From the NCBI RefSeq assembly GCF_029227855.1, contig NZ_CP074356.1: DNA of 64,000 bases. One strand, written 5' to 3'. Each line of letters begins with the position of its first letter. Position 1 is the stretch's first letter. Source of the DNA: Escherichia coli (GTDB lineage: Bacteria; Pseudomonadota; Gammaproteobacteria; Enterobacterales; Enterobacteriaceae). The notes under the pieces were generated by a model. The model worked only from the letters and a program-made list of their open reading frames with translations, was not told where the DNA came from and ran no database searches. A program made the translations under genes and the position numbers. Below are positions 54,316 through 61,494 of the stretch, one piece after another.

Positions 54316-56394
54316 TTAAATCAATGCCGATTTATCAATTCCCAGTCGCTTCATCCGTGACAGCAGAGTCGTGCGTTTCAGCCCCAGACGTTGCGCAGCG
54401 CCTTTAGGCCCGGCAACCACGCCGTTTGTTTCTTTCAGCACGCGAACAATCAACTGATATTCATCTTCGCCCTCCTGGGCGACAACCGTTGCGGCAGGCG
54501 GCGTTTCTGGTTCCGGTAAAACAATATCTGGCAGTGACAGCTGCAGCACGTTGCCGCGTGTTAGCAATACCGCGCGCTCGATGACGTTTTCCAGTTCGCG
54601 CACGTTACCCGGCCACTCCATGTTGCTCAAGGTGCGCAACGTCTCGGCAGGAATGCTGTCGATATTGCGCCCCAGACGACGGGCAATTTTGAAGGTAAAG
54701 GCTTTCGCCAGCAGCGGAATATCTTCCGGACGCTCGCGCAGGGGCGGCAGGTGGATCGGGAATACGTTCAGGCGGTAATAGAGATCGCTACGGAACTCTC
54801 GGTCGGCGACCATTTTTTTCAGATCGCGGTTAGTCGCGGCAATTAAACGTACGTCCGTCTGAATGATTTTGTTGCTGCCGAGGCGTTCAAACTCCTGTTC
54901 CTGTAATACACGCAGCAACTTCGGCTGTAACTCCAGTGGCATATCGCCCACTTCGTCGAGGAACAGGGAGCTTTTATCCGCCAGTTCAAAACGACCAATG
55001 CGCTGGGCGCTGGCACCGGTAAAAGCCCCACGCTCATGACCAAACAGATCGCTCTCCAGCAATCCGGCAGGCATCGCCGCGCAGTTCATTTTTACCATGC
55101 GGCGATTATTACGCCCACTGAGATTATGGATAGCACGGGCAATCAGCTCTTTACCTGTACCAGTTTCACCGAGAATCAGCACGGTACTGTCGCTTTGCGC
55201 CACCATTTCAACTTGTTTAAGTACGCTGTACATGGCTTCGCTGCGGCCAATAATCTCGCCAAATTCACTATCAACATTGTTGAGCTGCTCGGTCAGGGCG
55301 AGGTTTTCATCAACCAGCCGTTCTTTCAGACGATGGATTTCCTGATAGGCGAGGGCGTTATCGACAGCGATTGCCACACGTTCGGCAATCTGGCGCAGTA
55401 AATTCAGATTGGTAGTGGTAAACACTTTCTCTTCGCATTGCGCCAGTTTCAGCACGCCCAGCATGGTGTCGCCAGACATCAGCGGTAACAGGCACAAGGT
55501 TTGAATCTGGTTGCCCCAGGTGTCGAACAACATGCGTTCATAGGGGGCTAAATCGTCCCGCTCGTGGAGATTAATCAGCAGCATCTCTTTGCTTTTGAAC
55601 ACGCGTTCGGTGAGGGTTCCGGCTTCATCGACTTCGCTCTGTTCGTGGGCGGGATGCTGTTTATCAAGATAGTGAGTGGAGTAGATGTTGAGTTTGTTTT
55701 TACGGTGGCTGCGTAAGACGATGCTGATATCGTCAATGTCGAAGTAGTAATGGATTTCTTTGGCGACTTCGCTGACCAGTTCGTCCATATCCAGGCGGGA
55801 AAGCACCGCGTTGGTGATGGCGACCAGGATACGGAAGTTATCGCGCTCCCGGCATAACAACTCATAGTCGACATTATTGACGACGCGGCTCTGGATTTGT
55901 TCGGTGACGACAGAAACGATCTGCGTAAATGTTTGCAGACGATTGAACTCTTTTTCGCTCCAGGGGCGATCGTCATAACGAATAAATTCACAGCCACCAA
56001 AAATATGCCCTTCCGCCGCCAGTGGCATCAGGCAATAGTGACCAAATTTGGGGTATAGCCCACCTGCGGCCAGCTGCGGCCAGGTTTCACAAAATTCTTC
56101 GTAACTGCAATGCAGCGTATCAGGGCGCGACAAAATGCTGCGTACCGGACCGTGTGCCAGAACAGTTTCGTCTTCATATTTAATGGGGGTGTCTTTTTCA
56201 CGCGATGCGTAATAAGACGCACGTTGAGTCTGCGCTTGCCACAACACAATAGCCGCGTTGTCGGCGAGCGCAGAACGCTTTACCAGTTGCGAAAGAGCCT
56301 CACACAGCGAGGCCAGATCGGGCTGCTGCAATAGTGTCCGAGTGATGTCGAACAACCCTTGTTGTCCGAGATCACTCATCGGTGTATATGACAT
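54316..56394 (-). CDS. fhlA: Formate hydrogenlyase transcriptional activator (sigma-54 enhancer-binding protein)
   Basis: Track ORF 54316-56430; start at MSYTPMSDLGQQGLFDITRTLLQQPDLASL... (692 aa); GAF domains, AAA+ sigma-54 activation domain (GETGTGKE, GAFTGA), C-terminal HTH. Confidence 0.9.
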   Translation of the reverse strand: MSYTPMSDLGQQGLFDITRTLLQQPDLASLCEALSQLVKRSALADNAAIVLWQAQTQRASYYASREKDTPIKYEDETVLAHGPVRSILSRPDTLHCSYEEFCETWPQLAAGGLYPKFGHYCLMPLAAEGHIFGGCEFIRYDDRPWSEKEFNRLQTFTQIVSVVTEQIQSRVVNNVDYELLCRERDNFRILVAITNAVLSRLDMDELVSEVAKEIHYYFDIDDISIVLRSHRKNKLNIYSTHYLDKQHPAHEQSEVDEAGTLTERVFKSKEMLLINLHERDDLAPYERMLFDTWGNQIQTLCLLPLMSGDTMLGVLKLAQCEEKVFTTTNLNLLRQIAERVAIAVDNALAYQEIHRLKERLVDENLALTEQLNNVDSEFGEIIGRSEAMYSVLKQVEMVAQSDSTVLILGETGTGKELIARAIHNLSGRNNRRMVKMNCAAMPAGLLESDLFGHERGAFTGASAQRIGRFELADKSSLFLDEVGDMPLELQPKLLRVLQEQEFERLGSNKIIQTDVRLIAATNRDLKKMVADREFRSDLYYRLNVFPIHLPPLRERPEDIPLLAKAFTFKIARRLGRNIDSIPAETLRTLSNMEWPGNVRELENVIERAVLLTRGNVLQLSLPDIVLPEPETPPAATVVAQEGEDEYQLIVRVLKETNGVVAGPKGAAQRLGLKRTTLLSRMKRLGIDKSALI

Positions 56395-58868: not shown

Positions 58869-59731
58869 CGCTGTGTCTCCAGCCAGTTCAGCCACTGGTC
58901 CATCCCTTCGCCGCTGGTGGCGGAAATAAGGATGATTTCAATTTCTGGATTGACTTCGCGGGCGCAGGCGATGCACTTCTCAACGTCAAAGTTGAGATAC
59001 GGCAGCAAGTCAACTTTGTTGAGCAGCATCAGCGAAGCTGCGGCAAACATATGCGGATATTTCAGCGGTTTGTCTTCACCTTCGGTAACGGAAAGCACCG
59101 CCACTTTGTGTTTTTCACCGAGATCGAAGCTGGCCGGGCACACGAGGTTGCCGACGTTTTCGATAAACAGAATACCGTTATCGTCCAGTGGCAGGCGCGG
59201 TGCGGCGTCGGCAATCATCTGTGCGTCAAGATGGCAGCCTTTACCGGTATTCACCTGAATCGCTGGTGTGCCGGTAGCGCGAATGCGTGCGGCATCGTTC
59301 ACGGTTTGCTGATCGCCTTCAATAACCGCGCACGGAACGCTGTCTTTCAGGCGCATTAAGGTTTCCGTCAGCAGGGTGGTTTTACCGGAACCAGGGCTGG
59401 AAACCAGGTTGAGCACCAGTTGCTTGCGGGCAGCAAAGCGCGCGCGGTTGCGTTCAGCCAGACGGTTATTTTTGTCCAGCACGTCAATTTCGACTTCCAG
59501 CATCCGACGCTGGCTCATGCCCGGCGCGTGAGTGCCCGCTTCGCCATGACCGTAATGCAGGTCGCCTTCTTCAGTCTGGCTGGGGGTAAATTCAGGCGTT
59601 TTAATGCCGGTGATTTTCATCTTCGGGCGTGCCGCCGGGGCAAATGGCGCGCTACGAAACGCGGAATGAGGGTTATGTTCATCACCCTCGATATACAGGT
59701 TGCCTTCACCGCAACCGCATGTTGTACACAT
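58859..59731 (-). CDS. hypB: Hydrogenase nickel-incorporation GTPase HypB
   Basis: 290-aa [28 protein letters not shown]...; metal-binding N-terminus, P-loop GSGKTTLL. Confidence 0.9.
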
Positions 59732-59734
59732 CGC

Positions 59735-60085
59735 TCACTCCTGGTCTATTTCTATCCGCCGAATCTGTAAACCGTCGTCTGCCACAATCTGTAGCATGTC
59801 ACCATGACACTGTGGACAGCGGCGGACGCGCTGGGTCAGTAGCGTCACATACTGTTGGCATGTTTCACACCAGCATTCGGCCTCTTGTTCTTCGAGGTGC
59901 AGTTTACAACCTTCCGCCACGCTGCCGCGGCAAACCAGATCAAAACAAAAGGCAAGAGAGCTGGTTTCGACACAAGAAAATGCGCCAATTTTGAGCCAGA
60001 CCCCAGTTACGCGTTTTGCGCCGTGTTTTGCGGCCTGCTGTTCGATCAATTCCAGTGCCCGTTGGCAGAGGGTTATTTCGTGCAT
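59735..60085 (-). CDS. hypA: Hydrogenase nickel-insertion protein HypA
   Basis: Track ORF 59735-60097; start at MHEITLCQRALELIEQQAAKHGAKRVTGVWLKIGAF... (116 aa) with GGGAGG RBS; zinc motif CxxC...CxxC. Confidence 0.9.
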   Translation of the reverse strand: MHEITLCQRALELIEQQAAKHGAKRVTGVWLKIGAFSCVETSSLAFCFDLVCRGSVAEGCKLHLEEQEAECWCETCQQYVTLLTQRVRRCPQCHGDMLQIVADDGLQIRRIEIDQE

Positions 60086-60116
60086 ATCGCCTCCCATTAA
60101 CTATTGCCAGCTACAA

Positions 60117-60131
60117 GCAATAATTGTGCCA
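60117..60131 (-). promoter_or_regulatory. Sigma-54 (-24/-12) promoter for the hyp operon
   Basis: Minus strand reads TGGCACAATTATTGC (GG-N10-GC spacing), about 30 bp upstream of the hypA start. Confidence 0.5.
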
Positions 60132-60244
60132 GTGTTGATTATCCCTGCGGTGAATAATGTCGATGATGTCGAAATGACACGTCGACACGGCGACGAAATT
60201 CATCTTTAGCTTAAAAATCGCTTTAATAACAATAAATTAAAAGT

Positions 60245-60260
60245 TGGCACAAAAAATGCT
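60245..60260 (+). promoter_or_regulatory. Sigma-54 (-24/-12) promoter for the hyc operon
   Basis: TGGCACAAAAAATGCT with canonical GG/GC spacing, 36 bp upstream of the hycA ATG; FhlA is encoded nearby. Confidence 0.55.
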
Positions 60261-60296
60261 TAAAGCTGGCATCTCTGTTAAACGGGTAACCTGACA

Positions 60297-60758
60297 ATGA
60301 CTATTTGGGAAATAAGCGAGAAAGCCGATTACATCGCACAGCGGCATCGTCGCCTACAGGACCAGTGGCACATCTACTGCAATTCGCTGGTTCAGGGGAT
60401 CACGTTATCGAAAGCGCGCCTGCATCACGCCATGAGCTGCGCGCCGGACAAAGAACTCTGTTTCGTCCTTTTTGAACATTTTCGCATTTACGTCACCCTG
60501 GCGGATGGCTTTAACAGCCACACCATCGAGTATTACGTCGAAACAAAAGATGGTGAAGACAAACAGCGGATTGCGCAGGCGCAACTGAGCATTGACGGCA
60601 TGATTGATGGCAAGGTCAACATCCGCGATCGCGAACAGGTTCTGGAACACTATCTCGAAAAAATCGCTGGCGTTTACGACAGCTTATACACCGCCATTGA
60701 AAACAATGTGCCGGTGAATTTAAGCCAACTGGTAAAGGGACAAAGCCCGGCAGCATGA
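60297..60758 (+). CDS. hycA: Formate hydrogenlyase regulatory protein HycA
   Basis: 153-aa ORF MTIWEISEKADYIAQRHRRLQDQWHIYCNSLVQGITLSKARLHHAMSCAPDKELCFVLFEHF... Confidence 0.9.
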   Translation: MTIWEISEKADYIAQRHRRLQDQWHIYCNSLVQGITLSKARLHHAMSCAPDKELCFVLFEHFRIYVTLADGFNSHTIEYYVETKDGEDKQRIAQAQLSIDGMIDGKVNIRDREQVLEHYLEKIAGVYDSLYTAIENNVPVNLSQLVKGQSPAA

Positions 60759-60882
60759 GCTGAGGCTTTGCCCGTTTTGCAGGCGTTACGCCTGTTTGGG
60801 GATGGGCGTGTCGATGAGTGTCGAAAATGACATTTCATCGGCATGTTTTCGTCAAAAATGACAATCACCTGAGGAATGCCTG

Positions 60883-61494
60883 GTGAATCGTTTTGTAATT
60901 GCTGACTCCACGCTCTGTATCGGCTGCCACACCTGTGAGGCCGCCTGTTCAGAGACGCATCGCCAGCACGGCCTGCAATCAATGCCGCGCCTGCGAGTGA
61001 TGCTCAATGAAAAAGAATCTGCGCCGCAGCTCTGTCACCACTGTGAAGATGCGCCCTGTGCGGTGGTCTGCCCGGTTAACGCCATCACCCGCGTTGATGG
61101 GGCCGTGCAGTTGAATGAAAGCCTGTGCGTAAGCTGCAAACTGTGCGGCATCGCCTGCCCGTTTGGCGCAATTGAATTTTCCGGCAGCCGTCCGCTGGAT
61201 ATTCCGGCAAACGCCAATACCCCGAAAGCGCCACCGGCACCGCCTGCTCCGGCGCGTGTCAGCACATTGCTTGACTGGGTGCCAGGTATTCGCGCGATCG
61301 CCGTCAAATGTGACCTTTGTAGCTTTGATGAACAAGGTCCGGCCTGCGTGCGGATGTGCCCGACTAAAGCCCTGCATCTGGTGGATAACACCGATATCGC
61401 CCGCGTCAGCAAACGTAAGCGTGAGCTGACCTTTAACACGGACTTTGGCGATCTCACCTTGTTTCAGCAGGCTCAAAGTGGAGAGGCTAAATGA
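60883..61494 (+). CDS. hycB: Formate hydrogenlyase iron-sulfur subunit HycB
   Basis: 203-aa ORF with four CxxCxxCxxxCP ferredoxin motifs (CIGCHTCEAAC, CHHCEDAPCAVVCP, CVSCKLCGIACP, CDLCSF...CVRMCP). Confidence 0.9.
   Translation: MNRFVIADSTLCIGCHTCEAACSETHRQHGLQSMPRLRVMLNEKESAPQLCHHCEDAPCAVVCPVNAITRVDGAVQLNESLCVSCKLCGIACPFGAIEFSGSRPLDIPANANTPKAPPAPPAPARVSTLLDWVPGIRAIAVKCDLCSFDEQGPACVRMCPTKALHLVDNTDIARVSKRKRELTFNTDFGDLTLFQQAQSGEAK

Follow-up and report, generated by a model that had tools for sequence, protein, structure and literature searches.

Genes and features of the hypA-hycA region

The DNA analysed here, referred to as the window, is a stretch of 64,000 nucleotides from Escherichia coli, in which the 211-bp segment at 60086-60296 forms the spacer between the hypA and hycA genes. 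Both genes had been named in a preliminary description made from the sequence alone, and the names proved right, as NCBIfam models and the RefSeq annotation of identical DNA gave the same identities for hypA and hycA (Table 1). For comparison we used 81 orthologous spacers from Enterobacteriaceae (Escherichia, Salmonella, Citrobacter, Enterobacter, Klebsiella, Raoultella, Kluyvera, Lelliottia, Kosakonia and others). At the ribosome-binding site of hypA, the hexamer GCCTCC is kept in nearly all 81 of them. The protein encoded by fhlA matched its NCBIfam equivalog over the full length (residues 1-692, with a score of 1548 bits against a cut-off of 830), and fhlA, hycA and hypA are all intact in the window. 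An Rfam scan of 59500-61200 returned no family above threshold.

The control region of the formate regulon between the hyp and hyc operons of E. coli K-12 was studied by the Böck laboratory between 1990 and 2000. The feature described here is already known and corresponds to this classical region, in its ordinary K-12 arrangement. A 1.1-kb segment around the spacer was found in 5,425 of 5,426 complete E. coli genomes, with at least 99% identity in 5,357 records; the segment is 100% identical to that of strain 7/2. The alignment with K-12 that the preliminary description had proposed was carried out. The spacer matched that of K-12 MG1655 at 210 of 211 positions, and the single difference, at 60220, leaves the arrangement of every motif unchanged. 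The position is polymorphic and falls in an AT-rich arm, with the IHF-like core described below 7 nt downstream; the G allele was recovered as an exact 61-mer from 484 complete E. coli genomes, ATCC 11775 (the type strain) among them. No difference from K-12 was seen in the hycA-hycB spacer. The divergent sigma-54 (NtrA-dependent) region listed for K-12 in EcoCyc under hycAp and hypAp has the same genes, the same -24/-12 elements and the same repeat block as the window, and it also shares the IHF-like site and the downstream hycA-hycB block, the G/T change at 60220 being the only difference in the hypA-hycA spacer.

Table 1. Positions of genes and sequence elements in and around the hypA-hycA spacer (window coordinates)
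Feature	Position	Strand	Details
fhlA, cognate activator	54319..56394	-	follows hypE as the last gene, on the same strand as hyp
hypA CDS	59735..60085	-	116 aa, ATG at 60085; ORF list, NCBIfam HypA subfamily, 241.8 bits
hypA ribosome-binding site, GGGAGG	60090..60095	-	read from the sequence
P_hyp, sigma-54 promoter TGGCACAATTATTGC	60131->60117	-	GG at 60130-60129, GC at 60118-60117; TGGCAC-N5-TTGC exact
UAS1 conserved core, ATGTCGAtgaTGTCGAAATGACAcGTC/ATGTCGATGATGTCGAAATGACACGTC	60157..60183		GTC-n6-GTC-n5-GAC-n2-GTC; putative FhlA binding block
UAS1 clade-specific extension, ACACGGCGACGAAATTC	60184..60201		contains GACGAAAT at 60192-60199
Sole spacer difference from K-12 MG1655	60220		G in the window, T in K-12; within none of the motifs
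IHF-like core, TAACAATAAATTA	60227..60239	+	one mismatch to WATCAANNNNTTR; within AT-rich 60205-60243
P_hyc, sigma-54 promoter TGGCACAAAAAATGC	60245..60259	+	GG at 60246-60247, GC at 60258-60259; one mismatch (ATGC for TTGC)
hycA CDS	60297..60758	+	153 aa, formate hydrogenlyase regulator; ORF list, NCBIfam HycA equivalog, 301 bits
UAS2, second FhlA-type block	60808..60863		GTGTCGATGAGTGTCGAAAATGACA (60808-60832) and TTTCGTCAAAAATGACA (60847-60863)

Two divergent sigma-54 promoters

The preliminary description had placed back-to-back, outward-facing -24/-12 elements of the sigma-54 type in the spacer, and both were found exactly where it had put them. Across the 64 kb of the window, TGGCAC-N5-TTGC is matched exactly at one place only, the element upstream of hypA, TGGCACAATTATTGC. 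When one mismatch was allowed, 11 matches were obtained against 7.5 expected; as one-mismatch matches are not rare, the motif count alone proves little. What is not due to chance is the arrangement, an outward-facing pair 113 bp apart with predicted leaders of about 20-26 nt. Transcription from P_hyp is predicted to start at about 60105, leaving a leader of 20 nt to hypA, and that from P_hyc at about 60271, leaving 26 nt to hycA. The GG and GC dinucleotides lie one helical turn apart in both promoters, and both -24/-12 motifs were present in 81/81 orthologous spacers, from Escherichia to Kosakonia.

Published data from K-12 lend experimental support to both promoters. A sigma-54 ChIP-seq study (PMC4591121) lists CTGGCACAATTATTGCT at 20 bp from hypA with a FAT score of 201, and TTGGCACAAAAAATGCT at 26 bp from hycA with a FAT score of 91, each of them an EcoCyc-confirmed promoter; the predicted leaders of 20 and 26 nt are equal to these tabulated distances, and the same study gives hypA as activated by FhlA and formate. 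The same spacer is listed in a genomic SELEX study (PMC8743547), and in Salmonella the hyp and hyc operons are sigma-54 dependent and bound by sigma-54 (PMC3844500).

The two promoters mirror each other from -26 to +1, 60105-60131 and 60245-60271 forming a 27-nt inverted repeat with 22/27 matches that includes the AGCTGGCA stretch following the -12 element. Beyond -12 the symmetry is kept in Escherichia only, and it is probably a lineage-specific trait rather than a functional element. The 26-nt leader of hycA (60272-60296) is unusually conserved across genera (TCTC...TTAAaCGGGTAACCTGACA), with one extra A before the ATG in E. coli and E. albertii.

A conserved repeat block between the promoters

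Outside the promoters and ribosome-binding sites, the alignment of the 81 spacers revealed two conserved segments, namely 60157-60183 and the sequence AAATCAAnnnnTTAAAAnc just upstream of the -24 element of hyc. Nowhere else in the 64 kb are RTGWCR hexamers as dense as in the first of these, designated UAS1. Its core sequence TGWCGARATGACA was present in 69/81 spacers, and nine spacers of the Klebsiella/Raoultella type carry in its place a palindrome of the same units, TGTCGATGAC-N(10-18)-GTCATCGACATGTC. UAS1 is centred at about -98 from the predicted hyc start and about -68 from the predicted hyp start; enhancers typically lie about 70-150 bp upstream of the promoter that they activate (PMC3844500), and we took the position of UAS1 to agree with this range.

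All the half-site strings reported in the preliminary description are present, among them the 47-mer TGTCGATGATGTCGAAATGACACGTCGACACGGCGACGAAATTCATC at 60158-60204. Within the block, however, conservation is confined to the left part (60157-60183), and the other named half-site, CGACGAAAT, turned out to be clade-specific: a GWCGAMA unit downstream of the core (GACGAAAT) occurs in only 16/81 spacers, all from Escherichia, Salmonella and some Citrobacter. For the shorter motif GWCGAAAT the window holds 6 copies where 5.25 would be expected, two of them lying 24 bp apart in the spacer. While the repeats in the marked block are real, the IHF-like site at 60227-60239, which takes up most of its AT-rich right part, had been overlooked. 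A terminator-like match at 60195-60180 was rejected as a by-product of the inverted repeats of the enhancer; such matches occur at chance frequency, and no transcript is expected there.

The IHF-like core TAACAATAAATTA lies directly upstream of the -24 element of hyc. Taken alone, this match is not above chance, the window containing 54 matches to the IHF motif against 51 expected. The position is nevertheless conserved across genera as AAATCAAnnnnTTAAAAnc-TGGCA, and it recurs at hydN.

The FhlA-type motif at other FhlA-dependent promoters

The motif YGTCR-A(2-4)-[ACT]-TGACR gave three matches in the window against 0.055 expected, figures that are indicative only, because the motif was derived from these same sites. 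One match lies at 60167 in UAS1, and the other two lie in the hycA-hycB spacer. A further match was found in the enhancer of fdhF, and none in 267 kb of related loci outside the hypA-hycA and hycA-hycB spacers. More broadly, GTC-N5/6-GAC with an A-rich spacer, together with TGWCG units, was found at fdhF, hydN, hyfA and in the hycA-hycB spacer. The 16-bp FhlA consensus published by Leonhartsberger in 2000, CATTTCGTACGAAATG, was searched for in the form given in PMC4987338. It had no match in the window at up to three mismatches, and its best match in the spacer had mismatches at 7 of 16 positions. As its fit was equally poor at fdhF and hydN, this consensus is a weak and non-discriminating criterion.

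The upstream activating sequence of fdhF, CGTCAAAACTGACG, is a GTC-N6-GAC element with an A-rich spacer, like TGTCGAAATGACA in UAS1 and CGTCAAAAATGACA in UAS2. It differs from the hyp-hyc block in serving one promoter only and in having additional TTTCGTCA repeats, and no IHF-like site adjoins the -24 element in the fdhF sequence that we read. The FhlA- and sigma-54-dependent hydN-hypF region has the same order of elements as hyc, with a TGTCG/TGACA-rich block followed by an AT-rich IHF-like site and then the -24/-12 element. Its enhancer, GTCATCGTCAC-TA-GTGTCGATGAC, is built of the same TGWCGATGAC units as the hyp-hyc block, although hydN has a single promoter, its units form a divergent palindrome and its -12 element (TGTGAA) is weaker. 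Over the stretch that covers the IHF-like site and reaches into the -24 element, hydN and hyc (60222-60249) are identical at 24 of 28 positions (TTAAATAACAGTAAATTAAAAACTGGCA versus TTTAATAACAATAAATTAAAAGTTGGCA), which suggests that the two may share a common promoter cassette. Upstream of hyfA, CGACACGGGTGTCGAA is close to CGACACGGCGACGAA at 60183-60197 of the window.

A comparable layout is found at other IHF-assisted bEBP enhancers, for example at norVW, with three NorR sites, and at pspA, activated by PspF. Several activator sites precede the -24/-12 promoter there by about 70-130 bp, with a DNA-bending site between, and norR-norV also has a divergent arrangement of genes. The recognition sequence of NorR is different (GT-N7-AC), however, and the divergent partner at norVW and pspA is not driven by sigma-54.

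On these comparisons the repeat block is a well supported candidate for an FhlA enhancer. That it likely contains upstream activating sequences for FhlA had been suggested in the preliminary description, and the recurrence of the motif type at fdhF, hydN and hyfA and the family-wide conservation of its core agree with this. A preprint states that FhlA binds upstream of both fdhF and hyc, along a single face of the helix. A different regulator of the block, either ModE or a GlrR-type protein acting on TGTC-N10-GACA, is very improbable: ModE is reportedly required for maximal hyc expression, and TGTC and GACA tetramers do occur in the block, but their spacings are 5, 13, 14 and 22, never 10, for which reason the GlrR-type reading was rejected; moreover, the motif recurs specifically at the FhlA-dependent fdhF, hydN and hyfA, and, according to the literature, it is FhlA that binds upstream of hyc.

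A second FhlA-type block in the hycA-hycB spacer

The scan for RTGWCR density identified, as one of the two clusters ranking next after UAS1, a second block of the FhlA type in the hycA-hycB spacer, here called UAS2. Its first part is a near-copy of 60157-60179, with 22/23 aligned bases identical and two single-base indels, and its second part resembles the fdhF element. Its conservation exceeds that of any element in the hypA-hycA spacer, the 16-mer TTTCGTCAAAAATGAC being exact in 77/81 genomes and the first part being present in 78/81. The block ends 20 nt before the start codon of hycB, and no -24/-12 element was found between the two.

Just past the stop codon of hycA, at 60780-60794, a short hairpin (CAGGCG-TTA-CGCCTG) is followed by TTTGG. 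It was observed only in the long (124-146 bp) hycA-hycB spacers of the Escherichia type; at the same site, Salmonella and Citrobacter have other inverted repeats with CGTGACG/CGTCACG units.

Spacing of the enhancer and helical phase

The hypA and hycA genes are divergent in all 80 related loci, with spacers of 188-223 bp. Measured from the UAS1 anchor, the predicted hyp start lies at 67-69 or 78-80 bp and the predicted hyc start at 75, 86-89 or 97-98 bp, while the two predicted starts are 144, 154-155 or 164-168 bp apart. A further class with spacings of 55/111, seen in Klebsiella oxytoca-type sequences, is an artefact of anchoring and was discarded. Indels around UAS1 thus follow increments of about 10-11 or 22 bp. 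In Kluyvera, Pseudocitrobacter and Superficieibacter, UAS1 has slid by one helical turn toward hyc with the start-to-start distance kept (166-168 bp). This pattern fits an activator that binds the helix from one side and has to keep in phase with each of the two promoters, with the limit that the spacing classes follow phylogeny and represent only about five independent events.

Proposed mechanism of activation

We consider it very probable that the spacer holds two divergent sigma-54 promoters acted upon by FhlA at UAS1, with the aid of IHF at hyc, and with hyp activated via UAS1, UAS2 or both. For K-12 it is established that the enhancer is bound by formate-activated FhlA and that sigma-54 RNA polymerase waits at both promoters in closed complexes. 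In the window the polymerase would likewise sit in closed complexes at both -24/-12 elements, P_hyp (start at about 60105) driving hypABCDE-fhlA and P_hyc (start at about 60271) driving hycABCDEFGHI. FhlA activated by formate would bind UAS1 at 60157-60183, its presumed contacts reaching to about 60201 in Escherichia. IHF, in the role that we assign to it, would bend the AT-rich DNA at 60205-60243 and thereby allow FhlA, bound at about -98, to touch the closed complex at hyc and open it by ATP hydrolysis. P_hyp would likewise be activated by FhlA, from UAS1 (at about -68), from UAS2 (at about -700 to -760) or from both. The hyc operon encodes hydrogenase 3 and the anti-activator HycA, and the hyp operon encodes maturation proteins and FhlA. 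As HycA belongs to hyc and FhlA to hyp, the two promoters would close a negative as well as a positive loop.

Which enhancer serves P_hyp

The preliminary description had taken an enhancer shared by both promoters as known for this locus. The phase-locked spacing of UAS1 to both promoters speaks for sharing, but the presence of UAS2 argues against UAS1 being sufficient; a single shared enhancer is therefore not established. In its main points the preliminary interpretation was correct, though incomplete. Full-text literature searches returned no statement on which enhancer serves hyp.

We give about even chances to a separation of roles, in which UAS1 together with IHF would activate P_hyc only and UAS2 would activate P_hyp over a distance of about 0.7 kb. 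UAS2 contains the 25-bp module of UAS1 and in addition CGTCAAAAATGACA, which is like CGTCAAAACTGACG of fdhF, and it is near-invariant in 77-78/81 genomes. Since the 20 nt between UAS2 and hycB hold no -24/-12 element, the block is not the enhancer of a local promoter. The Böck laboratory reportedly described the hycA-hycB block as the enhancer of the hyp promoter, located about 0.7 kb upstream of P_hyp, and a separation of roles would agree with this literature of the 1990s. Two points weigh on the other side. The quantised spacing between UAS1 and P_hyp would be left unexplained, and the UAS2b part lies 20 nt from the start of hycB in 65/77 carriers, so that its conservation may reflect a role in the initiation of hycB translation.

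It is possible, though we regard it as the less probable reading, that UAS1 is one bidirectional enhancer which activates both P_hyc and P_hyp with nothing else needed. UAS1 is the sole conserved non-promoter block between the two promoters, its distance to P_hyp shifts only in steps of about 10-11 bp, and the one-turn slide mentioned above keeps the starts 166-168 bp apart. Against this, UAS2 is the more conserved block and needs a function, and the roughly 68 bp that separate the centre of UAS1 from the hyp start are a short distance for looping, with no conserved bend site between. Deletion and footprint work has also reportedly assigned the hycA-hycB block to hyp.

Because UAS1 is phased with both promoters and the more conserved UAS2 lies 0.6 kb away within the hyc unit, a three-node assembly can also be proposed, in which FhlA at UAS1 and at UAS2 and both closed complexes would be held in one looped structure. 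We regard such an assembly as unlikely. If true, it would depart from a scheme of one enhancer per promoter, and transcription through UAS2 might feed back on the activation of hyp.

Significance

The description of this locus, one of the first cases of divergent sigma-54 promoters controlled by a formate-sensing enhancer-binding protein to be characterised, carries little weight as a discovery; the strain has the K-12 arrangement unchanged. The comparative results are of modest practical value for the engineering of FHL and hydrogen production and for the modelling of bEBP enhancers. The useful outputs are the definition of a family-wide enhancer part (60157-60183), the misfit of the quoted 16-bp FhlA consensus to natural sites, the whole-turn indels around the enhancer and the near-invariant second FhlA-type block before hycB.

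Motif-like sequences within the coding regions

Four RTGWCR hexamers occur at 59771-59830 in the 3' part of hypA, over C-terminal coding sequence that includes the CPQCHGDM codons. This cluster, which we take to lie near the reputed internal promoter of hypB, is most likely a coding coincidence.

Within hycA, a sigma-54-like motif in sense orientation, TGGCACATCTACTGC, was observed at 60366-60380 (+ strand, codons 24-28) with one mismatch. No conservation is seen at its synonymous sites, and the intragenic ChIP-seq sites named in the text consulted do not include hycA. The motif is probably a chance occurrence. An enhancer inside the hycA reading frame, at the fdhF-like sequence 60456-60497, was considered and rejected, as no excess of synonymous-site conservation was found there in a codon alignment of 81 genes. 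In the same alignment, an excess of synonymous-site conservation in hycA was seen only in the first five codons.
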